NCBI GenBank assembly: GCA_021160845.1
Contig: JAGHBT010000225.1
Span: 1-28,579, forward strand
DNA: 28,579 nt
Direction of reading: 5' to 3'
Origin: a bacterium
GTDB lineage: Bacteria; Krumholzibacteriota; Krumholzibacteriia; Krumholzibacteriales; WJIX01
In this document: piece after piece, positions 10,207 through 28,579 of the stretch
Layout of the letters: each line of letters opens with the position of its first letter
Numbering within the stretch: the stretch's first letter is position 1
Made by a program: the position numbers and the translations under genes
Notes under the pieces: generated by a model
What the model was told of the DNA's origin: nothing
The model's database searches: none
What the model saw: the letters and a program-made list of their open reading frames with translations, nothing else

Positions 10207-11015
10207 CGTATCCACAACACACCAATCCCGGCGGAAAGCGTACTTCCGAGTACCGGATGATGATTCCAGGAAAAACCAAAATACCAATTGTTTCTTTGAT
10301 AAACCAACCCGGATGATATTTCATTCGTGTTAAACCCATAACCGGACAAGAGGCAAAAATCACTACTCAAATTAGCCTCTGCCCCCATTAGAAACTCATT
10401 TTCATTCCTTCGCAACACAGAGTAATTAACAAGCAGTGACAGAGGAAAATCGTTAATCGAAAACATAAATTTTGCCACCTCGTCAGCTGAAAAATCGGGG
10501 TCGTATATAATTCCTTCAAACCCGGATGTAAATATCTTTTTCCAATCGAAACTTATTGAAGTTTTTACCGTTCCGTCTGTTTCATACTCAAAACCTGTCA
10601 CTTTCCTACCACCAAATGCCGGTGATATCCCTAGCGAAAGCCCGCTTCGGGCAATTTCTCTAATCCACTGAATTTTAACGCGATCTTCTCTATATAGATC
10701 ATAATGAAGGAGAGACCATGACACCCATAGATTATTATTGCTATTACGAAATCCTATTTTTAGAAAGGAATCGGTGATGCCGTTTATAGAATACGGGTTG
10801 GAAACAGAGGAAATCAGCCCGAAATAATTTCCATTCGCTCTGATCCAATTCAGATTTGGAACAATATCAGGGTGTACTGCCCCATTTCTTGCCTTTATCC
10901 ATACCGGTATCCCTGCAATCACCGCCGGGGATATACCAATTATAAAAACAAATAACAGAACAAATAATATTACCCGCCGGCCTTCACGGCCAAACACCTT
11001 TTTTCTCTTCTGCAT
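10203..11015 (-). CDS. Hypothetical exported protein, probable small outer-membrane beta-barrel
   Basis: Hydrophobic signal segment (VILFVLLFVFIIGISPAVIA), amphipathic strands and an aromatic C-terminal strand (AGIGVLWIR). The start codon is uncertain. Confidence 0.65.
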   Translation of the reverse strand: MQKRKKVFGREGRRVILFVLLFVFIIGISPAVIAGIPVWIKARNGAVHPDIVPNLNWIRANGNYFGLISSVSNPYSINGITDSFLKIGFRNSNNNLWVSWSLLHYDLYREDRVKIQWIREIARSGLSLGISPAFGGRKVTGFEYETDGTVKTSISFDWKKIFTSGFEGIIYDPDFSADEVAKFMFSINDFPLSLLVNYSVLRRNENEFLMGAEANLSSDFCLLSGYGFNTNEISSGLVYQRNNWYFGFSWNHHPVLGSTLSAGIGVLWIR

Positions 11016-12736: not shown

Positions 12737-12762
12737 CACATCCACCTCCCCGGCTTAGAGTT

Positions 12763-12795
12763 GTGTAGACTACACCAAACCAAAACCCATTGCAA
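12763..12795 (-). promoter_or_regulatory. Putative promoter with an overlapping palindromic operator
   Basis: TTGCAA (12790-12795)-17 nt-TAGTCT (12767-12772). The perfect palindrome GTGTAG-A-CTACAC (12763-12775) covers the -10. Confidence 0.5.
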
Positions 12796-12855
12796 GAACT
12801 TTTTTAAAATTTTTTATGGAGTTTAAAGATGATCCCCTATTAACGGACGCCGTTC

Positions 12856-15030
12856 CTATACAAGTCCCCATATCTTTCTTAAAATCCACTCTGTGGTAAG
12901 AAAAAGGATAATTACAAAAAAGAATACTATATTTGAGCGAAAAGAAGTTGTACGAGTCATGTGGACTTCATTAACATGCGGGTTTAATCGATTAATAATC
13001 CCTTCTGCTTCATTTGGTACAAAGAACTGCCCCCCGGACTTTTTAGATAATCGCTTAAGGAAATCGCCATCCATAGATCTATGAATATATTCAACCGAGA
13101 GAGAATCAACGCTGAATTCAGTTTCTCCCTCAAACCCCTTGCCGGAATCCAGAATCTCCCTTGCCGCAACCCTGTAACGACCAGGACCGAGAGAGGGAAG
13201 CTTAACCCTAAAAACGCCCCTTTCCGGAATTTTCGGATCAAAGATAAAGGTCCGAATAAGCTCGTTCCCTTCCTTTTCCATTTTATAGAGCCTTCCCTTT
13301 ATGGCCTTAGGTAACCTCCTTTTTCCCAAATGCACTGATATCTGAGGCTCTTCCCCAGCATTGTACCTGTTCCTGGATGACACAACTTCGAGTGGTTGTC
13401 TGTCAGCACCGGAAGCAAAATATTGAATCAATGACGAGAAAAATGTATTGTAAATTTTCTCTCCCTCTATGCCCGCAAGTCTCCATCTCCAGAGTGGCAT
13501 CCCAAGCACTACACCCGACACCCCTTCTCCGCTGCGTTCAATAGCGACCAGGGGTTTTAAGTCACCTTTGTTTTCATCTAAATAAAGGGGTACGGTAGTC
13601 CCCATAGAAGGATTAAATCCTTCAAGATATACCGGCAGAGGAGGTAATTCATAAATCCCCCCGCATTCAGATAGCATTACGGAAACCGTGTTGTTACCCT
13701 CAGGGGAAAGTCTTAAATAGTACTCCCCCACGGACGCCCTAACCAAAGACAGCTTCTTTACCGGAATAATATCCTCGAGGAGCTTGAAAGATGAATCGTA
13801 TATTAATGGGCTACTTTCATCGGCAAGAAAAACAACTCCTCCACCTCCATGCACATAATCGATTAAAATATCCGCATTCTCGGCTATAGAGAAAGTCCTT
13901 TCGGCATCAGAAATAATAACCAGGTCATACCGTTTTAACCCATCGCTTCCTGATGGAAATTGCCACTTCAGATATTTTGGAATCTTTATATAACCCTGCC
14001 CCGGATTCCATGTAACAAAATCAAAATCAAACCTCTTCATTTCACCCGCGAGGTCACGCAAAAACTTCATATTCCAATCTGCATGCTCGTCTATATACAG
14101 AATATGCCTCACCTCTTCAAGTATCCCGAGGTTAAATCCCTCCGATCTTCTACCCGATAACTTCATTTCTTCACATTCCAGTATAATTTTCATCCTGTGA
14201 TCACTTGCTTTACCGGCAAGATAATCAAAAACGGCTCTATATTCACCTTCGCCATTTTCCGCTACGACCAATACACTATCTATTAACTCATCATCTTCAA
14301 ACAACCTTGCTTTTATGTGAACATTTTTTCTGAGTCCTTTAGCGGCTACGATAGTTTCAATCTTTGTTTTCATCCCGGAATAAACCCTTCTCTCATAGAT
14401 GATGTCTTCAATCGATAGATATCCACCCTTCAAAGTATTCCCAAATCCAATTGAATATACCGGAAGATTTATCCCTTCAATTAATGTTCTGTTGTTTGTC
14501 TGGATTCCGTCTGTAAGAAGTATTATTCCCGCCGGCTTAGAATACCTGTATCGATTGGCAACTGCTTCTATACTGCCTGTTATGTCAGTTCCCTCACCCT
14601 CTGCTTCAGGGATGCTATCGGCTTGCACCGGGTTTTTCCAGAGATTTTTTGAAAAAGGAATAATTTCTATATCAGCAGAATGTTTATCCCCGATATTTAT
14701 AAGTAACCCGTCGATAACAGAACGAGCAAATGCAATACGGCTTTCTCCTGAACAATCTTTTATGCTCATACTTTTTGAGACATCCACAAGTATTGGAATT
14801 ATTGGGGTTTTTTTCTCAGTGGCCAAATAGGTCAAAAGAGGATTTACAAAAAACAGAACAAGCGACAGAAAAGCCAGAGACCTCAGCCCCGCAAGAACAA
14901 ACCTCTTTGGACCGGAGATAGATGGAAAACATTTTCTATATATAAAAAGAGAAAAGAGTATAAGTACTGTGGCAGCGGCAAACCCCCATAGACCAATTTC
15001 AAGTAGTATATTTCCAACAGCTTCAAACAC
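12856..15030 (-). CDS. Membrane-anchored vWA-domain protein with an Ig-like region and a class I GATase-like region
   Basis: Two N-terminal TM helices; MIDAS residues LVDVSKSMS, GTDITGS and ILLTDG; central YDLVIISD...YVHGGGGVVF region; C-terminal TM (FFFVIILFLTTEWILRK). GTG 15030 follows the SD AGGAG (the track start is 15054). Confidence 0.85.
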   Translation of the reverse strand: MFEAVGNILLEIGLWGFAAATVLILFSLFIYRKCFPSISGPKRFVLAGLRSLAFLSLVLFFVNPLLTYLATEKKTPIIPILVDVSKSMSIKDCSGESRIAFARSVIDGLLINIGDKHSADIEIIPFSKNLWKNPVQADSIPEAEGEGTDITGSIEAVANRYRYSKPAGIILLTDGIQTNNRTLIEGINLPVYSIGFGNTLKGGYLSIEDIIYERRVYSGMKTKIETIVAAKGLRKNVHIKARLFEDDELIDSVLVVAENGEGEYRAVFDYLAGKASDHRMKIILECEEMKLSGRRSEGFNLGILEEVRHILYIDEHADWNMKFLRDLAGEMKRFDFDFVTWNPGQGYIKIPKYLKWQFPSGSDGLKRYDLVIISDAERTFSIAENADILIDYVHGGGGVVFLADESSPLIYDSSFKLLEDIIPVKKLSLVRASVGEYYLRLSPEGNNTVSVMLSECGGIYELPPLPVYLEGFNPSMGTTVPLYLDENKGDLKPLVAIERSGEGVSGVVLGMPLWRWRLAGIEGEKIYNTFFSSLIQYFASGADRQPLEVVSSRNRYNAGEEPQISVHLGKRRLPKAIKGRLYKMEKEGNELIRTFIFDPKIPERGVFRVKLPSLGPGRYRVAAREILDSGKGFEGETEFSVDSLSVEYIHRSMDGDFLKRLSKKSGGQFFVPNEAEGIINRLNPHVNEVHMTRTTSFRSNIVFFFVIILFLTTEWILRKIWGLV

Positions 15031-15060
15031 AGCTTCTCCTCTATCTGCAAACACCAGGAA

Positions 15061-15307: not shown

Positions 15308-15709
15308 TTAAATGATTTTTGTGCTCCCTGTTGTTTCTTTTTCTTTCTCAGGGATATTGCCAAAACTGGCGACTGCTTCTTCTACATTATCGTAGCTTTC
15401 AAGTATCGTTTGAAATTCAAGAAGCTCAAACACTTCATACACATCACCTACCATAGACGCAAGTTTAAGGTCTCCGCCATTCTCCCGGATTTTCTTAATC
15501 TCGCTAATAAAAATTCCCCACCCAGCAGAACTGACATAATCTACATCAGCTAAATCAATAATAATATCAAACCTCTGTTCTCGAAGAAGTTGTTTAATAC
15601 CCTTCTCCAATTCACTGGAGGTAGTTGTATCAATAAACCCACTCACATGTACAATAGAAATAGCTGAATTCCCTTCAGGTTTACTAAAAGAAATGCTAAT
15701 ATCATTCAT
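15308..15709 (-). CDS. STAS-domain anti-sigma-factor antagonist (RsbV/SpoIIAA-like)
   Basis: Motifs VHVSGFIDTTT, IIIDLADVDYVSSAGWGIF, GGDLKLASM and VYEVFELLEF. Confidence 0.92.
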   Translation of the reverse strand: MNDISISFSKPEGNSAISIVHVSGFIDTTTSSELEKGIKQLLREQRFDIIIDLADVDYVSSAGWGIFISEIKKIRENGGDLKLASMVGDVYEVFELLEFQTILESYDNVEEAVASFGNIPEKEKETTGSTKII

Positions 15710-15736
15710 GCTATTCTCTCTCTCTCAATTTGTATA

Positions 15737-16105
15737 CTAAGGCAAATTATTACTCTCTTGCGAATCGAAAGCAATCAGAGCATCCGTAGCCGATTCGTAA
15801 GGAGTTAACAGCGTGTCAAATTCTAAAAGCTCAAAAACGTCACGAACTTCGGGATTCATACCGGCAAGCTTTATATCACCTTTTTTTGCCCGTAAGCCTT
15901 TGATCTCAGAAACAAAAATCCCCCAACCCGCAGAACTAATGTAATCCACTTCCGTTAAATCAATTATCAACTTTACCTTGTACGCAACAATTAAATCATT
16001 AATCTTTGATTCAAGATAATAAGAAGTCGCGGAGTCCACTAACCCAGTCAGTTTCAATATTACCGTGTCTTCAACAAATTCTTCTTCAATATGCAACTCA
16101 TCCAT
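15737..16105 (-). CDS. STAS-domain anti-sigma-factor antagonist (RsbV/SpoIIAA-like)
   Basis: Motifs LKLTGLVDSAT, LIIDLTEVDYISSAGWGIF, KGDIKLAGMNPEV and VFELLEF. Confidence 0.92.
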   Translation of the reverse strand: MDELHIEEEFVEDTVILKLTGLVDSATSYYLESKINDLIVAYKVKLIIDLTEVDYISSAGWGIFVSEIKGLRAKKGDIKLAGMNPEVRDVFELLEFDTLLTPYESATDALIAFDSQESNNLP

Positions 16106-16151
16106 ATGTTAGATTCCCCTTTTCTTCTACAAACTGATACTAAAGCAAAGT

Positions 16152-17273
16152 TCAGTCCAACAACGCCTTTAATAATATAAAAACACCATGCCTTTCATTC
16201 TCGGTTAATCTTATATTCTTTTTGGCTTTTTCATAATCTTTATTAATCATAACCGCTTTTTCGAAAGCCTTCCCGGCTTTATCCATAAACATCTTACACT
16301 TCGCCGTATAAAGTATTCCAAGCGAGTTGTAAGCATCCGCAAAATTCGGATTTTGATCAACTATCTTTTTCATAGCATCCAGATACTTATCAATTTCAAC
16401 TGGATCAAGATTATTATCACTTTGAAGTATAATCAAATAAAGTTCACTAATCACTTTATCTATATAGATTCTATCTGAAGCCTCTTCGACAGAATCCAAC
16501 AACTTCAAAACCTCATCATATTTACCTTTGCTGAAAAGTTCCTTTACTTCATCTGTTTTATCCCCATTTAAAGAAGGATTCAGTGTAGCAACTTTATCAA
16601 GATACTCGTCAAAATCACCTTCCAGTTCATGCGATAACTCATAATCCTGCTTTATTATTGAATTCATTATGTAAGTTCGGACTATATTCAAATATGGCGC
16701 GCCATAATAGTAATTTAGCTCAATTGCGCGCTTAAAACTATCAACCGCGCGCCTGCACTCATTTCGCCTGTAGTATATCTTCCCCGCAAGATTGTGAAGA
16801 TCAGGATAATCGATCCTTATCTTTAGTCCTTCATTGACAGCTTTAAAAGCCTTAGAATATTCCCCAATTTTGTACCATGACTCGCTGACTATTTTATAGG
16901 GTTCCGCCCCCTTCTCACCCTTTTTTATCGCTGTCTCAGCCTCATCAACAGCTTCATGATAAAGGTTCCGAAGAAACAATGCATTCGCAATCTTAAGATG
17001 GAATGAGGATTTGTCGGAAGAACTGATCTTTTCCTTTACATCCAGAAGAAGAAGAAACTTGTCTCTATTTCGATTATGAATAACCTTTGCCAGTTCAATG
17101 GCTTCGTCCATTGATTTTTCTTCCTTCAGTTGATAAGTATCTGAATCAAAAGATATCCCCTTCTTAAAAAACACGGTTATCACAGACCGATCCCGTGGCA
17201 GAAAAGTGGTCTGTAGAAAATACTCCTCCCCACCCCTGTTTATTTCCTCTCTCAATTCAAAATTATCAGCCAA
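16152..17273 (-). CDS. Cytoplasmic tetratricopeptide-repeat protein with an uncharacterised N-terminal module
   Basis: TTG start after AAGGAG. TPR-like units include YPDLHNLAGKIYYRRNECRRAVDSFKRAIELN and FADAYNSLGILY. No signal peptide. Confidence 0.85.
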   Translation of the reverse strand: MADNFELREEINRGGEEYFLQTTFLPRDRSVITVFFKKGISFDSDTYQLKEEKSMDEAIELAKVIHNRNRDKFLLLLDVKEKISSSDKSSFHLKIANALFLRNLYHEAVDEAETAIKKGEKGAEPYKIVSESWYKIGEYSKAFKAVNEGLKIRIDYPDLHNLAGKIYYRRNECRRAVDSFKRAIELNYYYGAPYLNIVRTYIMNSIIKQDYELSHELEGDFDEYLDKVATLNPSLNGDKTDEVKELFSKGKYDEVLKLLDSVEEASDRIYIDKVISELYLIILQSDNNLDPVEIDKYLDAMKKIVDQNPNFADAYNSLGILYTAKCKMFMDKAGKAFEKAVMINKDYEKAKKNIRLTENERHGVFILLKALLD

Positions 17274-17308
17274 TCTTTCTCCTTTCAGTTTTCAAAATAC
17301 ATATATTC

Positions 17309-17336
17309 AGAATACTCCAAAATATAGCAGTGTCAA
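17309..17336 (-). promoter_or_regulatory. Putative internal promoter for the TPR-STAS-STAS genes
   Basis: TTGACA-16 nt-TATTCT in the 80-nt gap after parA. Confidence 0.5.
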
Positions 17337-17353
17337 AGCTTCATTTGAGCGAA

Positions 17354-18088
17354 TTAAATATTTAATATCTCCTCCGTCAGACGATAATAATCAAAGGCTC
17401 CTCGAGAAAGTGGCGCGTGTTCATATATGGTTTCATTTGATCCGGGCGCTTCCCTCAAAGCGGTATTAACTCTAATCACAGTATTGAACACGCCTTCAGG
17501 AAACCGGGTTCTAATATCTTCAAGAACAAGCTTTGATATATTTGTACGGGAGTCAAAAAAAGTTGGAAGAATGGTGAAATTAATTGTTTTTTTTGAAATA
17601 AGCCATTTTACCTCTTTTATCATTCCAATAGTCTGGCTTGCTCCAGCTTGAGACAGATAATCGAGTGAAAGAGGAATGACAATCTCATCAGAGAATGCGA
17701 GAATGTTGATATTTATCAAATTCAGCGAGGGAGGGCAATCGCATATTACATAATCAGAGCCCTTAAGATTTGAAAGGGCTTTCACCATTCTTTTTTCGCG
17801 ATCCCTTTCCTTTCCAAGAAGAAGTTCCACCTCCACAAGATCAGCCCCTCCCGAATCAATAAGAAAGAGATTGTCCCTAACCTGCAGAATATCTACATCA
17901 CCTGTCCTGAGTAAACTGGAAAGTCCTCTTTTCCCCTCATTTCCAAAAGTGATTGCAGCATTTCTCTGTGGATCACAATCTATAAGCAAAACCTTTTTAC
18001 CGCTCAACGCGAGTCCATGAGCAAGATTTACGGCAGTAGTCGTTTTGCCCGTACCACCCTTCATTGTCATTATCGCGTATTTTTTCAT
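17354..18088 (-). CDS. ParA/Soj-family ATPase (orphan, no adjacent parB)
   Basis: Deviant Walker A KGGTGKTTT, IDCDPQRN, Walker B ICDCPPSL, FDSRTN and LREAP. ATGA overlap with the upstream stop codon. Confidence 0.92.
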   Translation of the reverse strand: MKKYAIMTMKGGTGKTTTAVNLAHGLALSGKKVLLIDCDPQRNAAITFGNEGKRGLSSLLRTGDVDILQVRDNLFLIDSGGADLVEVELLLGKERDREKRMVKALSNLKGSDYVICDCPPSLNLININILAFSDEIVIPLSLDYLSQAGASQTIGMIKEVKWLISKKTINFTILPTFFDSRTNISKLVLEDIRTRFPEGVFNTVIRVNTALREAPGSNETIYEHAPLSRGAFDYYRLTEEILNI

Positions 18089-21000
18089 TTTTTAGTTCCT
18101 TTGTTACCTTTTCTGTTAATATTGGAAAGCTTCTCCCCATAGGCACCCCACCCAAGATTCTTGATTTTCCTGTCTTTCTCTTCACGTTTGTCTACCTTGT
18201 CTCTTTCAATATCCAGACCGGAATAGGAGGAAACTCCTTGATGGTCTTCCGCCAATTCCCCAGAGTCACTACTATCCTCTTCCTTAGCGCTAACCTGATT
18301 AATATAGTCCTCTTCCGGAATTCGGGACGAATACAGAATTTCTCTTTCTGCTTTTCCGTCATATTTTTCAATTTTTTCCTCTACTTTTTTCCCTTGCCTA
18401 CCTTTGTTACGTTTTACTTTCTTAGACAATTTCTCTTCTCTATTTATGCCTTCCTTAACATCAGAAGACGTGGATTTTATCCAAGATGAATTTATCATAT
18501 CATCAATAGCCTTTTCCCTATCAAGAAAATGATTAATAAGCGGTTCAAATCCAAGATCAATAAAAATTTTGTATATTGCCGAGTTCATTCCGATAAGCGC
18601 CAATTTCGTTCCGGAACTATTCAACTGCTGAACATATTTGACAATATTCCCCCAGCCACTGCTGTTTATATAAACTACATCCGACAAATCAACCAGCAAG
18701 AAGGCTGGATTGTCAGACAATGACCGCTCCATATTGATCTCAAATTCATCATTTGTGGACGCGTCAATCGCACCGCTTACTTTCAGAACTACACCAACAT
18801 TCCCCGAAATTTTAATTCTCTCAAGATCAACTCCAAAAGTATAATTCTCAACCTCGTTCCGTTTTCTTCCCGTAACTACAACGGCAGGTTTAGATCCGAG
18901 GTTATTTTTGTCATGGCTGGATTCAGCAATTTCAACATTAAAATCCTCCACAGCCTCAGCTAATATATTAAACGAATGCATAAGATCATCGAATTCAAGC
19001 AGCTTGAATATCCTGTTAACATCCGGATCCATACCGAAGATTTTCAAATCACCGCCTTTCTTTCTCATCCCGTCAATCCTTGAGGCAAAAACGCCCCAAC
19101 CGGCACTGCTTACATATTCTACGCCGGACATGTCGGCAATAATCTTACTTGTACCTTTTCCCAATATACGATCAAAGGCTTCACGGAGTTCTAAAGAGCT
19201 TACCGTGTCGATTATACCTTGAAGCTCCAGAATAGTTATCTCTCCATTGTCCCCAACCAAACCCGCCTTTATTCGTAAAGGAGTCATATCAGATTCATCT
19301 ATGCTTAGTATTTCTGGAATTAATTTCTTTTCAGATTTCTTCTTTTTCCGACTTTTCCGTTTTACTTTAAGATGTTTCTGTCTTTCATGGAATGGAAGCG
19401 ATAGAAATCTAATCGCTTCTTCTTTCAACCTAAACTGCATAAGGATATCCATAAATCCCAGCAACTCAAATATGTCATAAACCTCGGGAGACATTCCCAC
19501 CAAAACAACATCCCCCTCTTTCTCCCTTAGATTCTTCACTCTACCCACAAATACCCCCCATCCACCACTGCTTATGTACAAAACATCATTTAAATCAACT
19601 ATAATATTCTTGGTTCCCTCCTCGTACAAATCCTCCATAACACTTTCCAATTCGCCGGTAGAGGAAGAATCAAGATGACCGGAGACTTTTAAAACGGTTA
19701 TATCCTCATTGTATTTTTCATCTTCAATCCTTACAGGGGAATCCGACCCATATCTGAATTCCTCAGCATCTTTCTCATATTCCCATTCTTTACTGAATTT
19801 CTCGTCACCGCGTTCCTCGATCACAGATTCTGAAACTCTTTCAAGACTACCCCCTGAACCCACGGACATTTCCCCTACAGTGTCTCTTTGAGGAGTTAAG
19901 ATCGAGCCTTTTTTCTGTTCTACAACTTCTTCCTCTCCAATAACAATTTCCCTTTTCACCTTCTTTATATCTATTGTTCCTTTTGTGCTATCTTCAATCT
20001 CCTGCTCCAATTTTATTCCATTTCTTCTCAAATAATCCAATCTCTTCTCATATGTATTCAGCCTCATTCTCTTTAGTTCGTTATAGACAAGCGAAGAAGT
20101 ATTTAGATTAGCTTTACCTCTTCCCAAATTAAGCCTATCAGCAATCCTCTTAGCTCCAAAGCGGGGGTTTTCCTTAATTACTTCCAGCAATTTCGTTCTT
20201 TGCTCATTACTCAAACGTCTTATAGCATGTTCTTCTCTTAGATTCTTATTCTTTAAACCGCGGTCCCCCATCAATTCCAACCGTTTTTTGTACCTGTAAT
20301 ATGTTGATGGAGATACCTTCATCTTACTGCAGGCATCAGTCACTGAGATTCCTTCCACACTGACCAAGTCAAGCAACCTTCTTCTAATGCCGAGCAATAC
20401 TTCATCCGCCATATACTTCTCTTTAAATGCGACTACCGTAATATCATCATTTTGCGGATATTGCCCCGTGAATTTATCAATCTCATTGCTCAAGATATCT
20501 ATAAATTCCTGAGGTGATTTGCTGCCACTTTTTTTCATCAATTTAAGAAGTCTTTTCTCGCCGAATTGCTCCCTCTTTTCATTCATAGCCTCAGTTACGC
20601 CATCTGTATAAATCAGGAGCATATCATTTTTTTTGAGTTTAATCTTTTCAACATCTATCGATTTCTCAAACAATTTATCATCCGGGAGATTTATTCCAAC
20701 CGGAAATCCTCGTGGATTCAAGTAGAATGTTTCATTCGTTTCTGCTCTGTAAAGAATCATGGGATTATGCCCCGCACTGGCGTAACTAATAACCCTGTTT
20801 CTTGAATCAAGAATCACATAGAATATTGTGACAAACATCCCTTTTTTCATATCTTGGGTAACAAACTCATTCATTTTGGCCATCACGTCAGCAGCCGAAT
20901 GGTTACCCCTGGCTTCCATTCGTAACGCCGTCCTAATCATCGTCATCACAAGCGATCCGGGGACACCTTTACCCGACACATCAGCTACAACAACTCCCAG

Positions 21001-22419
21001 TGTATCGTCATCAACATTCACAAAATCGTAATAATCCCCGCCAACCTCTTTAGCTGCTTTATAGTAACTTGCGATATCATATCCGCCTATTTCAGGTACA
21101 TTTCTCGGGAGAAGGGAATGCTGTATCTCTTGAGCAACCTGCATCTCTTTTTGCATTCTCTCTTGTTCTACCACACTCTCCTGAGCTACACGGAATTTTG
21201 CTGTAATTTCATTAAAGGCCTTCGCGATCGCGCCAATTTCTTTAGGCCCTTTTATATCGAGTTCATCCTCAAGCGAACCTTCACCGATAGCTATCACCCC
21301 GTCAGTGAGGGTTTGTATCGGTTTGATAAAAATGGAGATGAGCAAATAGACAAGGCCTATTCCCGACATAAACATACCAAACAATATCACTATAGTTTTA
21401 AAACGCTCGTCTTGTACTAACATTTCAATTTCAGCGCTGGATACTCCCATGGCCAACTGCCCCATAATAATCCTTTCACCGGGATTCTTCCCTGAAAGTA
21501 CAATAGGCAAATGAAACTCCTTAATATTCTCGTCATCCCTATTCAGTGCGATCCATTTTCCATCTGAAGATAAATCTCTGACCCGAGAAGGAGCCTCGTA
21601 CAGTTGTCCAAATTCATCGGCAATACTCGAAGAAACTACCATTCCTTTCATGTTGACCACTCGTATATACTTTATCTCTGGGTGAATTTTCATCCCATCA
21701 TGAATAAACTCATTTAACTTCCTGTATTCAGGGTGGTATAAATCATCTAAAACAAGGGCATTTTCACTCCTAAATTCGAGCGTCTGAGCAAAACTTCTCA
21801 TTTGCAGCCAAGCCTTTTGCCGGGCATTTTCGATATCCCGGGTCTGATTAATAAATTGAATAAGCCCAATAATCGCGATAATTCCAAAAAGACCTGTAGA
21901 AGCCCTCAATAGAAATTTAAATCTAAGTGTTTGAGTCCATTTTGTTTTAATTGAATGAACTAGAGGTCTTTTTCCGGAAAGGGACAATTTGGAACTCTTG
22001 GCCATGATTAGATGATTTCCGTCACTGGAAGATTCATATTTAATATCATCCATGAGACGATTCATTAAATATATTCCAAGACCACCCCTCTTCCCCATTT
22101 CAACATATTCCTCCAAATCCGGATCTTTAACTCCCGACCAGTTAAAAGGGTTCCCCTTGTCACGGAGATGAATTTCAACATTTCCCGACCAAACCCGCAT
22201 ATCCACTGTTATCTTACCTGATTTACCGCTATAGGCATGCTTTATGATATTTGTACAAGCCTCATCAACAGCCAGCTTTGTGTTATTTGTCTCTCGTTTG
22301 TTAAATCCCGCCTGTGCACAAACATTGGATACATAATCTCTTATCTCACCCAGATTATTCTCGTCTGCATGAATTTCAAGATGAAAATCTTTTTCATTTT
22401 TAAGGAAGGGGTTTTTCAA
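18085..22419 (-). CDS. Multidomain partner-switching sensor: RsbW-like HATPase - TM - extracytoplasmic sensor - TM - HAMP - SpoIIE/PP2C phosphatase - transposase-like HTH region - 3x STAS - charged tail
   Basis: HATPase motifs AVDEACTNIIKHAY, RDKG and GGLGIYLM. Two hydrophobic helices. HAMP KPIQTL...EIGAIAKAFN. PP2C motifs GGDYYDF, ADVSGKG, YTDGVTE and DDIT. HTH SVTDACSKMKVSPSTYYRY. Three STAS domains carrying S(S/A/G)GWG. TTG start directly abuts the upstream stop. Confidence 0.9.
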   Translation of the reverse strand: MKNPFLKNEKDFHLEIHADENNLGEIRDYVSNVCAQAGFNKRETNNTKLAVDEACTNIIKHAYSGKSGKITVDMRVWSGNVEIHLRDKGNPFNWSGVKDPDLEEYVEMGKRGGLGIYLMNRLMDDIKYESSSDGNHLIMAKSSKLSLSGKRPLVHSIKTKWTQTLRFKFLLRASTGLFGIIAIIGLIQFINQTRDIENARQKAWLQMRSFAQTLEFRSENALVLDDLYHPEYRKLNEFIHDGMKIHPEIKYIRVVNMKGMVVSSSIADEFGQLYEAPSRVRDLSSDGKWIALNRDDENIKEFHLPIVLSGKNPGERIIMGQLAMGVSSAEIEMLVQDERFKTIVILFGMFMSGIGLVYLLISIFIKPIQTLTDGVIAIGEGSLEDELDIKGPKEIGAIAKAFNEITAKFRVAQESVVEQERMQKEMQVAQEIQHSLLPRNVPEIGGYDIASYYKAAKEVGGDYYDFVNVDDDTLGVVVADVSGKGVPGSLVMTMIRTALRMEARGNHSAADVMAKMNEFVTQDMKKGMFVTIFYVILDSRNRVISYASAGHNPMILYRAETNETFYLNPRGFPVGINLPDDKLFEKSIDVEKIKLKKNDMLLIYTDGVTEAMNEKREQFGEKRLLKLMKKSGSKSPQEFIDILSNEIDKFTGQYPQNDDITVVAFKEKYMADEVLLGIRRRLLDLVSVEGISVTDACSKMKVSPSTYYRYKKRLELMGDRGLKNKNLREEHAIRRLSNEQRTKLLEVIKENPRFGAKRIADRLNLGRGKANLNTSSLVYNELKRMRLNTYEKRLDYLRRNGIKLEQEIEDSTKGTIDIKKVKREIVIGEEEVVEQKKGSILTPQRDTVGEMSVGSGGSLERVSESVIEERGDEKFSKEWEYEKDAEEFRYGSDSPVRIEDEKYNEDITVLKVSGHLDSSSTGELESVMEDLYEEGTKNIIVDLNDVLYISSGGWGVFVGRVKNLREKEGDVVLVGMSPEVYDIFELLGFMDILMQFRLKEEAIRFLSLPFHERQKHLKVKRKSRKKKKSEKKLIPEILSIDESDMTPLRIKAGLVGDNGEITILELQGIIDTVSSLELREAFDRILGKGTSKIIADMSGVEYVSSAGWGVFASRIDGMRKKGGDLKIFGMDPDVNRIFKLLEFDDLMHSFNILAEAVEDFNVEIAESSHDKNNLGSKPAVVVTGRKRNEVENYTFGVDLERIKISGNVGVVLKVSGAIDASTNDEFEINMERSLSDNPAFLLVDLSDVVYINSSGWGNIVKYVQQLNSSGTKLALIGMNSAIYKIFIDLGFEPLINHFLDREKAIDDMINSSWIKSTSSDVKEGINREEKLSKKVKRNKGRQGKKVEEKIEKYDGKAEREILYSSRIPEEDYINQVSAKEEDSSDSGELAEDHQGVSSYSGLDIERDKVDKREEKDRKIKNLGWGAYGEKLSNINRKGNKGTKK

Positions 22420-24312
22420 TTAATCCTTCTCCCCAGAATTAATTATTTCAAGCCTTTTGCCAGCTTCTTCAATATTCTTCTTTATACTTTCATTATCAGG
22501 ATCAATCTTTAGAATTTTATTCCATACTTCTATTGCCGACTTATACTTTCTTTGTGTAAAATGCTTCATTCCGTCTATGTACAGCTTCCGGATTTGTTCC
22601 TTTTCTTCATTCTTGAGAGGAGTTATCCGCCGCCGCGCTCTATCGAGCAACTTTAATGCCTCCTTATGATCAGGCTGAATCTTCAACACCCTTCCCAGCT
22701 GCTCTTCCGCTTTGGAATAATCGCCTGTGCTGAAATTATTCAACGCCTTTTCAAAGAGATCTATAGTTGTCAATTTTATTCTTGCCGAATCAAACTTTAC
22801 ACTCATAGCCCGCAACCGATCCTTTAACCTCTGCGCACCCTCTTCGGCTTCTTTATGCTTCGGATTAAGCGCTTTTATCATATTCCATTCATCCAGTGCC
22901 GCGGCTAATTTACCTGCCTCTTCAAAATCGATTGCTTTCTTCCTGTGGCGGTCAATCTGCTTAGAAAGTTTTTCCTCAATTTTCTTTATATATCCCTTTG
23001 CATTCTCATTATCAGGATCAATTTCAAGTAGAGAATTCCATTCTCCCCTTGATAGGAGATATTCATTGTTTCCGTAATATTTTAATCCCAGTTTAAAATG
23101 ACGCTTTATAAGAACCTGTTTTTCAACCGACTTAATCTCTTGCTGCTGTTTCTTGATTATCTCATCTTCCAAAACTGAAATCAGCCTCGAAGCCTCAACA
23201 TCCGACGGATCGTATTCGAGCGCAATCTTAAACTCATCATACGCCTTTTCAAGTTCTCCATTTTTTCTGAGAGATTTCGCTTTTTGCAGATGACTTTTGA
23301 GTCTGTCGGAAAGTACCTGCTTGAGATATCCTTCTTCTTCCTCCCTTCGACGCGCCGCTAGTGCTTCTCTCTTTCTCTCAATTGACTCGCCAAGATTAAC
23401 CGAAATTGAAAACGGATGAGAAGATCCGGCTTCATCACGGCTGAAATACCCGTAATCAGCAGTATATTCCTGCCATGAAAACCCTATTCCGGCGGTTATT
23501 TGCTCAGAGTCAAATCCAACCCGGAAACTGATTATATTTTTTAAATCATATTCGATACCAAACCTTAGATCATTATCGGCCCTCTCGGGCATATCAACTT
23601 GCGCGGAAGCAATCAGCGCCGACCCATTCTGAAATTCGTAAGAATACCCCACCCCAAACATCATGGTTCTATCAACCCTTTCACTAATAGATACAAGTTT
23701 TGTTTCAGCCCCTACTATATCCTGAATATTGCACCCCAGAACAAATCCTTTCAGATAAGAAAGCCTGTATAAAACTCCAACATCCATCCCCGTTCCCGTA
23801 TCTGAATAATCGCCTATACTCTGATTCAATACCTTAATTGATGTTCCGAGAGTGAACTTTCCTAACAGCTCAAATGGAATATCAAAGGCATAGGCCAATA
23901 ACCCCTGGCTTTCACGATAGGAAATTTCCCCCAGTTCATTACTAAATTCGTCAAACGCTCTTATCCCGCCGGTACCTGTTGTCATTATCCCGATTCCAAA
24001 GGCGCCGGATAAAAGGGTTGGATAAACCGCTCCAACAAAATCGTAATTCGCCCCACTGAAATCCGAGAATAGTTGAATGTGATTCACCATTATTCCCGTA
24101 TATTTATTTAATTTTAAACCGGCAGGATTGTAATAAATAACCGAAGGGTCATCACCAATGGCAGAAAATGCTCCACCCAGAGAAATAGCGCGCGAACCTG
24201 CTCCAAGAGTAAAAACCGATCTGGTTCCACCAACACCCACCTCGGCAAATACATCTTTACCCGTGGCAAGGAGTATTATTAAAATCAGAGTTGTTAATCT
24301 TTTCTTTCTCAT
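22420..24312 (-). CDS. PorV/PorQ-like (FadL-fold, UPF0164-like) outer-membrane barrel fused to C-terminal TPR repeats
   Basis: Signal peptide; family N-terminal motif GSRAISLGGAFSAIGDDPSVIYYNPAGL; about 300 aa of strands ending near SVNLG; then a helical region with several TPR-like units (ALEYDP, LLEIDP, VLKIQP, ILKIDP). Confidence 0.85.
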   Translation of the reverse strand: MRKKRLTTLILIILLATGKDVFAEVGVGGTRSVFTLGAGSRAISLGGAFSAIGDDPSVIYYNPAGLKLNKYTGIMVNHIQLFSDFSGANYDFVGAVYPTLLSGAFGIGIMTTGTGGIRAFDEFSNELGEISYRESQGLLAYAFDIPFELLGKFTLGTSIKVLNQSIGDYSDTGTGMDVGVLYRLSYLKGFVLGCNIQDIVGAETKLVSISERVDRTMMFGVGYSYEFQNGSALIASAQVDMPERADNDLRFGIEYDLKNIISFRVGFDSEQITAGIGFSWQEYTADYGYFSRDEAGSSHPFSISVNLGESIERKREALAARRREEEEGYLKQVLSDRLKSHLQKAKSLRKNGELEKAYDEFKIALEYDPSDVEASRLISVLEDEIIKKQQQEIKSVEKQVLIKRHFKLGLKYYGNNEYLLSRGEWNSLLEIDPDNENAKGYIKKIEEKLSKQIDRHRKKAIDFEEAGKLAAALDEWNMIKALNPKHKEAEEGAQRLKDRLRAMSVKFDSARIKLTTIDLFEKALNNFSTGDYSKAEEQLGRVLKIQPDHKEALKLLDRARRRITPLKNEEKEQIRKLYIDGMKHFTQRKYKSAIEVWNKILKIDPDNESIKKNIEEAGKRLEIINSGEKD

Positions 24313-24318
24313 ATCCTT

Positions 24319-27300
24319 CTACTTCGCAATTGCAATCTTGAAAATTGCGGAATTAGGTCCTGCCGTTATCTTACAGATATATATTCCGTTCCTGACAAGT
24401 TCACCACGGCCATTTCTTCCATCCCACAATACTATACACTCTTCTCCTCCGGGGCTTCCTGTAGCACCCTCACTTCCGGCGGCAATATCCTTTGACCAAA
24501 CTAAAATACCCGTGTAATCATAAATTTTTATATTCACATTTACATCTTCCACAAGAAAATATGCAATTCTCGTATTCTCACTTCCCGCTCTAAAGGGATT
24601 TGGATAATTATGTGCGTATTCGGAAAAATTGCCGCTCATAATTGTAAAGGGAGTATTATAAAAATGCCCCGCTATTTCACTTCCTCCTCCTCTCCAGACT
24701 ACGCTAACCGGAGCGCTTTGCCCTCCGATAGAAAATTTAATGTCATTACTACGAACAAGTTCAACTCTCATGCCGCCGATTGGAACGCTAAGGGCAATAT
24801 CAACTTCCACACTCGCTGTAGCGCTATCAGTTGAATTGATTGTGAACCCATGATCCACAATAATCGGTATGGGATTTATACCATCGGCTTCTGACGAATA
24901 CCTTCTTCCATCTTCTGTGACAAAACTTACACTGTCCACAAACTGTGAAGGATTTTCAATATCCATACCGTTCACATCACGGATAGTTACATAAAGTGTA
25001 TCAAGGCCTACGGTATATGCGGAATTGTTACTGAAAGAAATTTTTAGCATCGGCACATCCCGGGTTCCCTGCGGTACTACATGCGGAGGAATGGCAATTG
25101 TGTCACTTTCGGAAATATTATTCATAGCAACAGTGCCCGCCTCTGTCTTTACCGGTATTAATATCTCTGCCGTATCTATTTCGGCCGTCTTGTTTGTATT
25201 AGAATCATTAGCGTAAGGCTCTGCAAAATAAATGCGAATATTACCCGGAGGTGACTTTGTGGAAGGCGCTTTCAAATTCCAGATAATGGGTTCTCCAATA
25301 CGGAATGCCTTGCTGCTGTCTCCATTAATAAACGAATATCCCGGTGGAAGGGCTATCTTTAATCTTGCTCCTGTTGTATCAATCACTGCCCTTCCTTTAT
25401 TTTCGATCTCAGCTTCAACGGTAAAGGGGAGGTTAACAGACAGTTCCCCTTCAAGAGCCTGCTGAGGCCCTGATATCGCCGCAGATAAATTAATCAAAGC
25501 GGCAGATTCGGTTTCAACTTCTAAAGAGTAATTACAACCGCTGAAAGCGATACCTGAATTGACATCTACTCCGCCTGTAGTCAGCTGTATCTGCCGTTTT
25601 TGCAAATCTTCATCCGGGGGCGCTGTCAGGCTCCAAACAACATATGTTTCCGTTCCTTCGCCACTTTCAACATCACGTTTTAAATCTCCATCGACTGAAT
25701 ATCCGGAAGGAAGAGAAAGCTCCAGCCACACTCCATCAGAATTGGCGGAGGGTGTAACGGCTGCTCTGAGTGAAAAGTTCTGATTTGTCGATAAGAGTCT
25801 ATCCACAGCACCTGGAGGCGAATCAACCGATAAATTACAATTCCGAACAACCCCCTTCTCTTCTGTTAGGATAGTAATGCTATCAAGCGGCTCGGCACAA
25901 AAAGCCGGAGCGCCGATGTTAATATCAACGGGAGAAGTAGTGATTCCAACCCTCAGAATATCAGAGGTAGCAACAGCCGATGGAGAAAGCAGTGTCCACG
26001 CAACATTCTCATTAGGAATAAAGATCCTAGTCAATGGCTCATGCACGGGGTAAACAGATGAAAAACCATCAGGCAATGTTATAGTTATTCTTCCCGAATT
26101 ATCAACTAGCGCTTCCCCCCTGTTGGATACACTAGCTGTAACAGTGAAGTTCTGTTCTGTTGAAAGGGTATCATCAACCGCTCCCGGAGGAGATATTATC
26201 CCCACTTTACAAACAAGTTCCGCCGCACTCTGTATTTGAATATTTTCAACCGATTCTACAGCCTGTATCGGGTAAATTTCTTCACCTGTACTAACTGATA
26301 CGGCTTTTGTTATGGAAGCGGAAAGAATTTCAACACCCTTATTGGAAGACGCCGTAACATCAAAAACAAAAATACCCTGCGTCCCGGTGTCGAGATAGGG
26401 ACAACTGTCAGACAAACTGATTACCGAACTCCCGTCAGTTACAAGAGATACATCAATACTATCCAGCTCATCGCCTCCTGTATTTTCAATCCGTACGGTA
26501 ATATTAAACTCCTGAGTAATATTCACAATAGAGGTGTTTGGGATTAAAAGGTTATTCGGAGCATCACTTTCTACCGAAATAATCCTCAGTCCGGCGGGTT
26601 CCCTAACAATTACCGCAGAATCACCACTCGCCTGCGTCTGTGCCGAATCAGGATTATTTTCATCCAGCCAGTCCAGCAACATACTTACCGAAACAGTTCC
26701 TGTATCAACTCCTGTAGATGATATCTGATATTCCAGTGAATCAATACCGCCACCCATCAGGGTAAAACCGGAAGCGCCTGATGCAAATTCACTCGGGGCA
26801 ATCACAAGATAATCTGTAAGTTGATTTAGGTTTTTAAAGAAATTGATATCCTCACTTCCTGGCTGATTCAGTGTTACAGGAGCCTCCCCACTATTTCTAA
26901 CAACAGCAGTCAGAAACCAGTCAACCGTTTGTCCGGCCGTTAGATATATCTGCGATGGAGCAACCCTTGTTATATCAAGTATACCGTGATTTTGTATCTC
27001 CGCTGTTGCCGTGCTGTCAACGGCCTCTGAAAATTTAACGATGTTACTCTGTCCGGAATTTGTATCAACGGCGGATTCCAGCACCACAGAGAAATCTTCT
27101 GTGGCAGCGGAGGAAGAAGCCCTGACATAAAATGTATCTTCAGCAACTTCCCCTTCATCGAGAAGAATTAAATAATGAATTGGTTTTTCAATAAAGGAAG
27201 CTCCCTCGCCTGACAAAGAAACCGCGATACTATCGGCCGCTGCGCCCCCGCTGTTTTCAACTTGAACTACAATGGGAAAATACTGCTCACAATTCACAAA

Positions 27301-28579
27301 AGGAGAACGAGGAGCTGCATTCTCAAGTGAAAGAACTGACAATATAGCCGGTGTTTGTATCTCAATAATTCCATAACCTGTATTTTCAATACCGGAATCA
27401 AAACTCAAAAATTGCAATCTGTTATCCTCAAATACACCAACACGGCTGTATATCTCCAAATTTTCAGTATTTGTTACCAAGGGAGATGGAGTGACGCTGA
27501 ATACAAGGTGCCCGGATTCTCCTCCGGCCAACACAATTCCGCCGCCGGAAAATCCGGAGGGCAGAGTGGGTACTGAGAGATTATAATTGCTGTATATATA
27601 AGTGCTATCCATAGAAAGTGTCACATCTGCTTCACCCTGATTTTCAACTAGAAGATCGACTTTCCAGACCGAGGTTTGTCCTGAAGTAATAGCATCTTGG
27701 CTAATGGTAGTCCCTGTAACAGCAACAACGGCGGGGTCCTGAATAAAAATGTACCCTCCCCCTCCATTAAATGTGTCATCGGTTACTATATTACCACTGT
27801 TCACGTCACTCGCGGTTACGTAAGCATTAATTGCAGCTATACCCGTGGATGAACCGGTTGATGTAATTCTGAACAAAAGGGTGTCTACCTGATTCCCCGC
27901 TAGAATAGTTGTTCCGGACCTCTGAAGGCTCTCAGGGTTTACAATGGTGTATTCTCCCGTACAATCACCAGAACCTGGGATATTAAAAGTCAGGTATGTA
28001 TTCAGATCTGAAAGATCCATATCTACTGACGCTTCGCCAGTGTTGTGGACGATCATCCTTACAAGCCAGGCGGGCTGTAAAGACGCCGTAACACTCTGGG
28101 GACTTACGATACTTGTAATACTTAAACGGGGAGCCACTTCAATTTCAATACTATCGGCAACAGAAGAAAGGTTTGTTTCAAAATCATTCCCATTCTCGAT
28201 CCCTTCAAGATGGATCAGAAACATGTAGGATCCAGCCGCAATAGAAGTGTCGACCGTGCTACTCTCAAACCTAAGGGTAATACTCTCTCCCCCTGAAATC
28301 ATATTTTGTGAAGTGGACGAGAGATACGCCTTAAAACTATCTTCATCTGCGTCAGCGAAAGATATGTACGTATTTGAAGGATAAAGTTCCAAAGTGGAAT
28401 GTTCATTATCTGAATTCAATATCCCCAATTCCACGGAGATTTCGGTTCCCCCGCTCGCCGAAAGAGGAGATAGGCTGGACAACACATATTCCGGAATTGG
28501 CTGCAGTTCAAACTTAACTGAATCAGTAGTCGTGATTGTTCCGGGGTAAGTATAAACTGTGTTACCACTATTAATCTCA
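24319..28579 (-). CDS. Giant secreted/surface protein with repeated Ig-like (CARDB-like) modules and a FlgD/T9SS type-A-like C-terminal domain (5' end outside the window)
   Basis: The frame stays open from 28485 to the window edge (EINSGNTVYTYPG...), so the track start is not the true start. Ser/Thr/Asp-rich repeated V.N.GEA/GG modules. C-terminal HNYPNPF...IKIYDYTG...WDGRNGRGELVRNGIYICKI. Confidence 0.88.
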   Translation of the reverse strand, partial: EINSGNTVYTYPGTITTTDSVKFELQPIPEYVLSSLSPLSASGGTEISVELGILNSDNEHSTLELYPSNTYISFADADEDSFKAYLSSTSQNMISGGESITLRFESSTVDTSIAAGSYMFLIHLEGIENGNDFETNLSSVADSIEIEVAPRLSITSIVSPQSVTASLQPAWLVRMIVHNTGEASVDMDLSDLNTYLTFNIPGSGDCTGEYTIVNPESLQRSGTTILAGNQVDTLLFRITSTGSSTGIAAINAYVTASDVNSGNIVTDDTFNGGGGYIFIQDPAVVAVTGTTISQDAITSGQTSVWKVDLLVENQGEADVTLSMDSTYIYSNYNLSVPTLPSGFSGGGIVLAGGESGHLVFSVTPSPLVTNTENLEIYSRVGVFEDNRLQFLSFDSGIENTGYGIIEIQTPAILSVLSLENAAPRSPFVNCEQYFPIVVQVENSGGAAADSIAVSLSGEGASFIEKPIHYLILLDEGEVAEDTFYVRASSSAATEDFSVVLESAVDTNSGQSNIVKFSEAVDSTATAEIQNHGILDITRVAPSQIYLTAGQTVDWFLTAVVRNSGEAPVTLNQPGSEDINFFKNLNQLTDYLVIAPSEFASGASGFTLMGGGIDSLEYQISSTGVDTGTVSVSMLLDWLDENNPDSAQTQASGDSAVIVREPAGLRIISVESDAPNNLLIPNTSIVNITQEFNITVRIENTGGDELDSIDVSLVTDGSSVISLSDSCPYLDTGTQGIFVFDVTASSNKGVEILSASITKAVSVSTGEEIYPIQAVESVENIQIQSAAELVCKVGIISPPGAVDDTLSTEQNFTVTASVSNRGEALVDNSGRITITLPDGFSSVYPVHEPLTRIFIPNENVAWTLLSPSAVATSDILRVGITTSPVDINIGAPAFCAEPLDSITILTEEKGVVRNCNLSVDSPPGAVDRLLSTNQNFSLRAAVTPSANSDGVWLELSLPSGYSVDGDLKRDVESGEGTETYVVWSLTAPPDEDLQKRQIQLTTGGVDVNSGIAFSGCNYSLEVETESAALINLSAAISGPQQALEGELSVNLPFTVEAEIENKGRAVIDTTGARLKIALPPGYSFINGDSSKAFRIGEPIIWNLKAPSTKSPPGNIRIYFAEPYANDSNTNKTAEIDTAEILIPVKTEAGTVAMNNISESDTIAIPPHVVPQGTRDVPMLKISFSNNSAYTVGLDTLYVTIRDVNGMDIENPSQFVDSVSFVTEDGRRYSSEADGINPIPIIVDHGFTINSTDSATASVEVDIALSVPIGGMRVELVRSNDIKFSIGGQSAPVSVVWRGGGSEIAGHFYNTPFTIMSGNFSEYAHNYPNPFRAGSENTRIAYFLVEDVNVNIKIYDYTGILVWSKDIAAGSEGATGSPGGEECIVLWDGRNGRGELVRNGIYICKITAGPNSAIFKIAIAK

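Follow-up and report, generated by a model that had tools for sequence, protein, structure and literature searches.

The DNA analyzed here (JAGHBT010000225.1; 28,579 nucleotides, with the whole stretch referred to below as the window) is an entire contig of a 2.03-Mb metagenome-assembled genome (MAG; GCA_021160845.1) that is 84.5% complete and comes from a bacterium of the phylum Krumholzibacteriota. All of the genes in the window lie on the minus strand and, according to the list of open reading frames (ORFs), seven of them occupy positions 15308-28579 (-). In gene order, these encode a giant surface protein with a type IX secretion system (T9SS) C-terminal domain (CTD), an outer-membrane barrel of the PorV family carrying an arm of tetratricopeptide repeats (TPRs), a kinase/phosphatase sensor fusion, a ParA-like ATPase, a second TPR protein, and two STAS proteins (Table 1). 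An original prediction, made from the letters of the sequence, had read this set of genes as a relay from the cell surface to the cytoplasm, built from T9SS-like and Rsb-type partner-switching parts. The intergenic gaps that it gave from the giant gene to the last STAS gene, i.e., 6, 0, -4, 80, 46, and 27 nt, agree exactly with the ORF list. Tight operon spacing alone could be chance, but spacing that is conserved across loci cannot, and the comparisons described below establish that the conserved module is real. Its DNA was found in both hydrothermal-vent and marine-sediment DNA metagenomes.

The barrel gene (22420-24312, minus strand) encodes a protein of 630 aa with a signal peptide at residues 1-23. 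The barrel scored 100.6 bits with the family model NF033709 (PorV_fam), for which the cut-off is 90. The equivalog cut-offs for PorV (NF033710), PorQ (NF033711; 60.9 versus 220), and PorV2 (58.9 versus 325) were not reached, so that the protein is a member of the family rather than PorV or PorQ itself. An AlphaFold2 model of the barrel (pLDDT 86.9) had 14 strands at residues 72-307 and only helices thereafter, with TPR matches extending over approximately residues 335-615. The top PDB matches of the barrel in Foldseek were PorV chains from two SprA translocon structures (8gl6_F and 6h3i_F; TM-score 0.63-0.64 by target), followed by FadL. The PorV-like barrel of the original prediction is thus borne out by both profile and fold. 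With an even number of strands (14) and a signal peptide, the C-terminal TPR arm should be periplasmic, a placement that we also infer from the known topology of the PorV family, and the 14-strand model and signal peptide support the location originally assigned to these repeats.

Whether the genome encodes SprA was a question raised with the original prediction. In the source genome (G000; G-, L-, and f-numbers denote the genomes, loci, and families in our comparison), SprA (368 bits summed) and PorU (553 bits) were both over the cut-off, as they were in four relatives, and many CTD proteins are encoded in all five of these genomes. A separate, canonical PorV (176-188 bits) adjoins PorU on another contig of the genome, and because of this we regard the barrel studied here as an extra, dedicated paralog. 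A model for GldM gave zero matches in every genome, controls included, so that this search was uninformative.

The putative cargo of the barrel is the giant protein, of which only the last 1419 residues are visible because the 5' end of the gene runs off the contig. The domain matches in it were CARDB, Ig-like, and T9SS type-A CTD, and its full-length orthologues are 3400-4550 aa long, with Big_1/Invasin_D3 repeats. The CTD scored 23.3 bits with TIGR04183 against a cut-off of 23, which is a marginal pass. Its motifs (YPNPF, IYD..G..V, WDGRN..G..V.NGVY, and K.AV.K) are kept in 21 homologues, including those in a paralogous module and in other phyla, and score and motifs together uphold the view that this is a CTD-bearing surface protein.

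The fusion gene (18085-22419, minus strand) encodes 1444 aa, in the order kinase, transmembrane (TM) segment, sCache domain, TM segment, HAMP domain, PP2C phosphatase, helix-turn-helix (HTH) region, and three STAS domains; a domain search found no match to REC in it. The kinase (HATPase_c_2 match at residues 17-141) has RsbW (6m36_A) as its best PDB match, and its N-box and G-boxes are present (E..N, DxG, and GGLG kept). The TM segments, at residues 168-191 and 339-372, flank a periplasmic sCache/PAS-like domain, in line with the periplasmic domain originally predicted for the HAMP-PP2C sensor. Within that domain an sCache-like profile matched residues 198-334; the PF17203 score was 22 bits here, below the cut-off of 28.4, while values of 32.5 and 28.9 bits were obtained for the paralog and for locus L102, respectively. 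A model of the domain (pLDDT 83) had the extracellular domain of WalK as its top PDB match, then KinD, DctB, DcuS, and CitA, with the periplasmic domain of Chlamydia RsbU also among the fold matches. HAMP matched residues 360-404 and SpoIIE residues 470-666 (E-value 2e-50). The metal-binding Asp motifs of the PP2C (GGDYYD, ADVSGKG, YTDG, and NDDIT) are intact when compared with solved PP2Cs and are invariant in 54 homologues. The PP2C is the best conserved portion of the fusion, and the periplasmic domain is the least conserved folded portion. The HTH profile match covers residues 678-770.

As regards the potential substrates of the kinase and phosphatase, a serine is present at the position of SpoIIAA Ser58 in five out of five STAS domains, tethered and free. 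The motif SSAGWG, which the original prediction had singled out as a "non-canonical" signature, was rejected as such: it aligns to the canonical D-S*-x-G-L-G, with D replaced by S and L by W, and the phospho-acceptor Ser is retained.

Table 1. Coordinates of the genes and domains of the module in the window
Feature	Position	Strand	Basis or detail
Giant Ig-like-repeat surface protein, C-terminal 1419 aa	24319..28579	-	ORF list, domain search, orthologues
T9SS type-A CTD, ~residues 1325-1419 of partial ORF	24322..24606	-	TIGR04183 and motifs
PorV/PorQ-family 14-strand outer-membrane barrel, residues 24-307	23392..24243	-	NF033709, AlphaFold2, Foldseek
TPR arm fused C-terminally to barrel, residues 308-630 (~320 aa)	22423..23391	-	TPR matches, AlphaFold2 model
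RsbW-like serine kinase of fusion, residues 1-160, cytoplasmic	21940..22419	-	HATPase_c_2, E-value 7.6e-29
sCache/PAS-like periplasmic sensor of fusion, residues 192-338	21406..21846	-	TM calls, PF17203, model
HAMP and PP2C (SpoIIE-type) of fusion, residues 360-668	20416..21342	-	Domain and structure alignment
IS481-like HTH region of fusion, residues 672-800, strongly conserved	20020..20406	-	Domain search, alignment
Three tethered STAS domains of fusion, residues 903-1305	18505..19713	-	Ser at SpoIIAA Ser58-equivalent: S951, S1105, S1253
ParA/MinD-type ATPase	17354..18088	-	Walker A; start overlaps fusion stop by 4 nt
TPR protein, 373 aa, no signal peptide	16152..17273	-	Domain and signal-peptide calls
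Free STAS protein, 122 aa	15737..16105	-	Phospho-acceptor Ser58
Free STAS protein, 133 aa	15308..15709	-	Phospho-acceptor Ser61

The fusion has more than 120 full-length homologues, with identities of 43-69%, which where named come from Krumholzibacteriota or Latescibacteria MAGs. The set of barrel-TPR homologues, all about 630 aa in length, matches that of the fusion. The order giant/barrel-TPR/fusion/ParA/TPR/STAS/STAS is kept at 20 loci, which represent six families of the phylum, with gaps of mostly -4 to +21 nt at the giant-barrel, barrel-fusion, and fusion-ParA boundaries. The barrel-TPR protein and the long fusion share the same families (f1, f2, f3, f7, f9, and some of f8); f4 and f6 were found to have neither, and the single f5 genome having either of them has both, in adjacent positions. 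A version in f8 has a shorter fusion (kinase to HTH) and one STAS gene, without the ParA-like and cytoplasmic TPR genes. Synteny within the phylum is weak evidence, and in part vertical inheritance, because housekeeping neighbors are also syntenic, and we took as independent lineages the paralog, the other phyla, and the representatives sampled from a wider search.

The paralogous module, in family f2, has 24-30% identity to the one studied here and the same order with different gene boundaries. It begins with a giant type-A CTD protein, after which come a PorV-family barrel-TPR protein of 665 aa (98.3 bits for its barrel with NF033709), an sCache_3_2-HAMP-SpoIIE protein (517 aa), and an RsbW-STAS fusion (368 aa). 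The same gene order was found on a 260-kb contig labeled Gemmatimonadota and on a 702-kb contig labeled Ignavibacteriales (L103), where a GGDEF protein follows the STAS gene. Locus L102 (8 kb, labeled Zixibacteria) was rejected as an additional independent lineage, its module proteins being 62-79% identical to those of L103; one of the two labels, probably the one on the short contig, is likely to be wrong. When 1.84 billion representatives were searched with a profile, 1823 proteins were obtained at E <= 1e-30. In six of the eight distant representatives sampled, a sensor PP2C was directly downstream, with the kinase N-terminal, C-terminal, or in a separate gene depending on the lineage. The synteny on which the original prediction had staked itself holds far beyond expectation, across the paralog and several phylum-level lineages.

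The coupling was also examined at 80 genome loci. The sensor was next door to every one of the TPR-bearing barrels that had at least 2.5 kb of downstream sequence (55/55), versus none of the TPR-less barrels (0/11), although the former count overstates independence because most of those loci are mutual relatives. A CTD protein was directly upstream in 59 of the 61 TPR-barrel loci.

We propose that these genes may encode a trans-envelope signaling module, assembled from T9SS and partner-switching parts and running from surface to cytoplasm, a reading to which we give a substantial chance, if somewhat less than an even one. The barrel would retain its own cargo at the surface by the CTD, in the manner of PorV-PorU and PorQ-PorZ, which seems likely by analogy with these pairs and with SprF-SprB, and from the conserved adjacency of the two genes. 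The TPR arm would hang into the periplasm and touch the membrane-distal tip of the sCache domain; that it reaches this far is likely, judging from a weak prediction of the complex and from the strict co-occurrence. The state of the barrel and its cargo (loaded, unloaded, or pulled) would then shift the balance between phosphatase and kinase and with it the phosphorylation of the STAS pool, i.e., we infer that the TPR-sCache contact would bias the PP2C versus RsbW on that pool. In this lineage the output would probably pass via the fused HTH, to which the ParA-like ATPase and the second, cytoplasmic TPR protein may contribute. The fused HTH, which is highly conserved, is the obvious candidate for this role, and the GGDEF neighbor in L103 is another candidate output. 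In a more specific form of the proposal, the TPR arm would be a physical wire from outer to inner membrane, such that cargo loading, or a mechanical pull on the adhesin, flips the RsbW/PP2C balance on STAS; this we regard as doubtful.

The predicted contact was assessed by modeling complexes between the TPR arm (residues 308-630) and the periplasmic domain (residues 192-340) from genome-paired alignments, in three runs and with three controls. The ipSAE score was 0.56 in three runs, compared with 0.00 for the best control, although a value of 0.60 or less represents a weak pass, and such a pass proves wrong more often than correct, except for pairings that were already likely. On the TPR side, the predicted interface (residues 574-616) falls within the last TPR unit (residues 574-625). 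No other part of the arm is as well conserved as this unit (entropy 0.77 versus 1.72), and of the ten columns without variation among seven deep homologues, which include the paralog and sequences from other phyla, six fall within it. On the sensor side, the predicted contacts (residues 226-241 and 267-271) are at the end of the long helix 1 and in helix 2, a region that we regard as the tip of the sCache domain farthest from the membrane. When distances for the PP2C and the barrel were controlled for, the partial distance correlation between TPR arm and sensor was 0.45, the highest of nine domain pairs (0.08-0.29 for the others). Only the ranking was used, with low weight, and the p-values from partial Mantel permutations, which were small for every pair, are meaningless because the taxa are related.

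Besides the modest ipSAE score, several observations weigh against the proposal. The conservation of the last TPR unit is partly the generic TPR consensus, and the interface residues of the sensor are no better conserved than the rest of its domain (entropy 1.99 versus 2.11). The TPR-sensor contact of the original prediction is weakly supported. Most of the syntenic loci belong to one phylum, in which an aminotransferase gene, purD, and the genes at 8527-15054 are syntenic too. Two of the eight sampled representatives, from a subfamily of ~1200 aa, have no PP2C nearby, and genome G126 has a fusion without a kinase domain and with no barrel nearby. (The latter fusion, at L042:12224-18161, starts at the sCache domain and lies beside a pyruvate:ferredoxin oxidoreductase gene, which is due either to rearrangement or to an assembly artefact.) Neither the window nor related loci yielded a sigma factor gene, and no other target of the switch is visible. 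Finally, sCache domains usually bind small molecules.

This last point leads to the alternative that survives best, in which the surface protein and the switch are co-regulated and physically uncoupled. The sensor would read a small periplasmic molecule and control the adhesin operon via STAS and HTH, with the TPR arm acting as an anchor to peptidoglycan or to the T9SS core. The fold of the sensor is indeed like those of the ligand-binding domains of DcuS, CitA, and DctB and of the periplasmic domain of Chlamydia RsbU. In addition, PorP-PorE-PG1035 provides an example of a barrel, periplasmic TPRs, and a CTD cargo that are concerned with anchoring, without a signaling role (PMC9143113). The weakness of the contact prediction and the low conservation of the periplasmic domain within the fusion point the same way. 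However, physical uncoupling fits poorly with the strict co-occurrence of TPR arm and sensor (55/55 versus 0/11), and with the fact that the genes for the barrel-TPR protein and the sensor remain adjacent, and often overlap, through fission and fusion and across phyla. Moreover, the closest structural relative of the sensor is WalK, which has been modeled integratively together with a protein partner, YycH (PDB entry 9a5d). On balance we consider this alternative unlikely, while taking it seriously.

A second alternative is that the CTD of the cargo is itself the ligand, i.e., that while in transit, or accumulating in the periplasm, it binds the sCache domain and reports the secretion load, with the barrel-TPR protein acting as a competitor or chaperone. 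There is a close parallel in the CTD of PorA, which binds PorY in the periplasm and activates PorXY-SigP (PMC12152298). The CTD protein encoded directly upstream of nearly all TPR-bearing barrels, and the good conservation of the CTD, would also be accommodated. Yet the sensor tracks the TPR arm and not the mere combination of CTD and barrel, since there are TPR-less barrels that follow CTD proteins and have no sensor, and we consider this explanation improbable.

The reverse direction of control, in which the switch senses a cytoplasmic or membrane cue and, via sCache and TPR arm, alters the holding, release, or exposure of the adhesin by the barrel, could draw on the same contact evidence as our proposal, on the self-contained nature of a switch made of kinase, PP2C, and three tethered STAS domains, which needs no downstream target, and on the lack of a sigma factor or other target gene nearby, but signals normally travel inward through HAMP domains, cytoplasmic outputs are suggested by the HTH domain and by the GGDEF neighbor in a relative, and a PP2C sensor that acts outward would be, to our knowledge, without precedent, so that we judge it the least probable of all.

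The component parts of the proposed signaling module are all of known kinds; the novelty lies in the fusion of a barrel with TPRs and in how strictly this fusion is coupled, in the genome, to a partner-switch sensor. In keeping with the statement in the original prediction that no characterized system with this layout is known, our literature search found no description of the module, and no paper linking T9SS cargo anchoring with partner-switching phospho-relays. The barrel resembles PorV and PorQ (F. johnsoniae PorV, 6H3I and 8GL6; P. gingivalis PorV-PorU and PorQ-PorZ) in its 14-strand, FadL-like fold, its match to NF033709, and the PorV chains that head its structural matches, and also in that its gene adjoins one for a type-A CTD protein and its genome encodes SprA and PorU. 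Unlike it, those proteins are without the ~320-aa C-terminal TPR arm, and the barrel studied here is a paralog dedicated to one neighboring cargo. In PorP-PorE-PG1035 and SprF-SprB, a barrel is likewise encoded beside its own giant CTD cargo, and the periplasmic, TPR-containing PorE binds the barrel (PMC9143113). However, the CTDs there are of type B, the barrels are of the PorP family, PorE is separate whereas the TPRs here are fused to the barrel, and no signaling protein is present in the complexes.

A conceptual precedent for the signaling step is the CTD of P. gingivalis PorA, which also binds PorV and which contacts the inner-membrane sensor PorY (PMC12152298, PMC7712824). In PorA-PorY-PorX-SigP, as in our proposal, a T9SS CTD protein informs an inner-membrane sensor through a periplasmic protein-protein contact. 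The differences are that the former uses a histidine kinase and an extracytoplasmic-function (ECF) sigma factor, that it has no TPR arm, that its genes do not form one operon, and that the ligand is the CTD.

Among partner switches, SypE/SypA of Vibrio fischeri (PMC3610818) also has an N-terminal RsbW-like kinase and a C-terminal PP2C on one chain, both acting on a STAS protein with no need for a sigma factor. SypE is cytoplasmic with a REC domain in the middle, whereas the middle of the fusion studied here is TM-sCache-TM-HAMP, with an HTH and three STAS domains in addition. The M. tuberculosis protein Rv1364c (3KE6), the best PDB sequence match to the PP2C, similarly carries sensor, PP2C, RsbW-like kinase, and STAS domain on one chain, but it is cytoplasmic, with a PAS sensor, the order PAS-PP2C-kinase-STAS, a single STAS domain, and no link to the envelope. 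Chlamydia RsbU and SiaA of the P. aeruginosa SiaABCD system combine a periplasmic Cache-type domain, HAMP, and a PP2C that controls a STAS-type switch; in contrast to the fusion, their kinase is separate, and no outer-membrane partner is known for them. The SiaA profile scored 79.7 on the fusion, far below its cut-off of 700. Lastly, the resemblance of the module to TonB-dependent transducers and FecR-ECF relays is functional only, and none of the cluster genes encodes the domains of a TonB-dependent receptor with an N-terminal signaling domain, an anti-sigma factor, or an ECF sigma factor.

The genes for the ParA-like ATPase and the second TPR protein are lineage-specific accessories. The ParA-like ATPase (AAA_31, E-value 8e-38) has the deviant Walker A motif MKGGTGKTT and is an orphan, no cognate ParB/centromere or MinE-type partner being found in the window; the versions of the module in f8, Ignavibacteriales, and Gemmatimonadota lack its gene. 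The ParA-like ATPase, the 373-aa TPR protein, and both free STAS proteins are cytoplasmic, because they have no signal peptide, and the second TPR protein (16152-17273) therefore forms no part of a periplasmic bridge. The tail of the fusion (residues ~1416-1431; 18088-18180) is of low complexity; its conserved end, D..GW..YG.KL, immediately precedes the start codon of the overlapping ParA gene and may serve as a peptide for ParA binding. No RNA runs containing the locus were found. In the 80-nt gap between the ParA-like and cytoplasmic TPR genes there is a sigma-70-like site, TTGACA-16-TATTCT (10/12 matches; 17336-17309, minus strand), the one site of note in a promoter and terminator scan, but we do not treat it as evidence, because promoter-like sites were no more frequent than in shuffled sequence (41 versus 37.8). 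Terminator-like sites were also not in excess (15 versus 12.9).

A second block that is conserved across the phylum follows the operon at 8527-15054 and encodes four proteins. One is a protein of 732 aa with an N-terminal double TM, one C-terminal TM, and GATase1_like/VWA features, BatA-like in a feature search. Another has a lamin-tail domain, a signal peptide, and an end resembling a CTD, and the remaining two are a putative small barrel of 270 aa and an HhH-like protein of 586 aa. We did not adopt these genes as part of the same operon: they are separated from the STAS genes by gaps of 84-1367 nt, which makes the block probably a separate unit, and housekeeping genes are syntenic too.

Several related arrangements were observed in the wider comparison. 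At the paralogous module (L036:1-14007 in G065, whose main module is at L020, and L037-L040), a GAF histidine kinase is next after the RsbW-STAS gene. At L127:8987-12895, a kinase-PP2C sensor of 1302 aa has TPR matches between the kinase and the PP2C, which suggests a TPR-TPR contact replacing TPR-Cache. In an Elusimicrobia MAG (L116:6956-11027), the gene for a 520-aa PorV-like barrel ending in a short TPR tail lies 4 nt ahead of that for an odd fusion of 834 aa, in which HisKA-HATPase_c is joined to FliF_C, FliG_M, and FliG_C. Finally, at L110:5250-13363 and at L115, from FCPU426-type MAGs, a CTD protein precedes a PorV-like barrel protein of 418-422 aa whose C-terminal domain is Ig-like. Next come a two-TM HAMP protein of 187 aa and a protein of ~1400 aa with a CHU_C (type-B CTD) end, so that a small membrane signaling protein stands beside a cargo/barrel pair, as in the module studied here.

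The module links a giant surface protein to a Ser/Thr phospho-switch through a gene order that is strictly conserved through fission, fusion, and phylum boundaries. If the predicted contact between TPR arm and sensor is real, it would represent a protein-based route from surface to cytoplasm that uses neither TonB-ECF nor two-component logic. The proposal, if correct, would extend the recent observation, made with PorA-PorY, that cargo of the T9SS can serve as a signal, and would provide a function for many proteins annotated as "PorV/PorQ family protein" and "anti-sigma factor antagonist" in uncultured FCB-group genomes. Should the TPR arm prove to be a physical wire, the module would define a new class of surface or contact sensing, based on T9SS parts and occurring in many uncultured lineages of the FCB group, in which the outputs, i.e., an HTH, a GGDEF protein, or a second switch, would be interchangeable.

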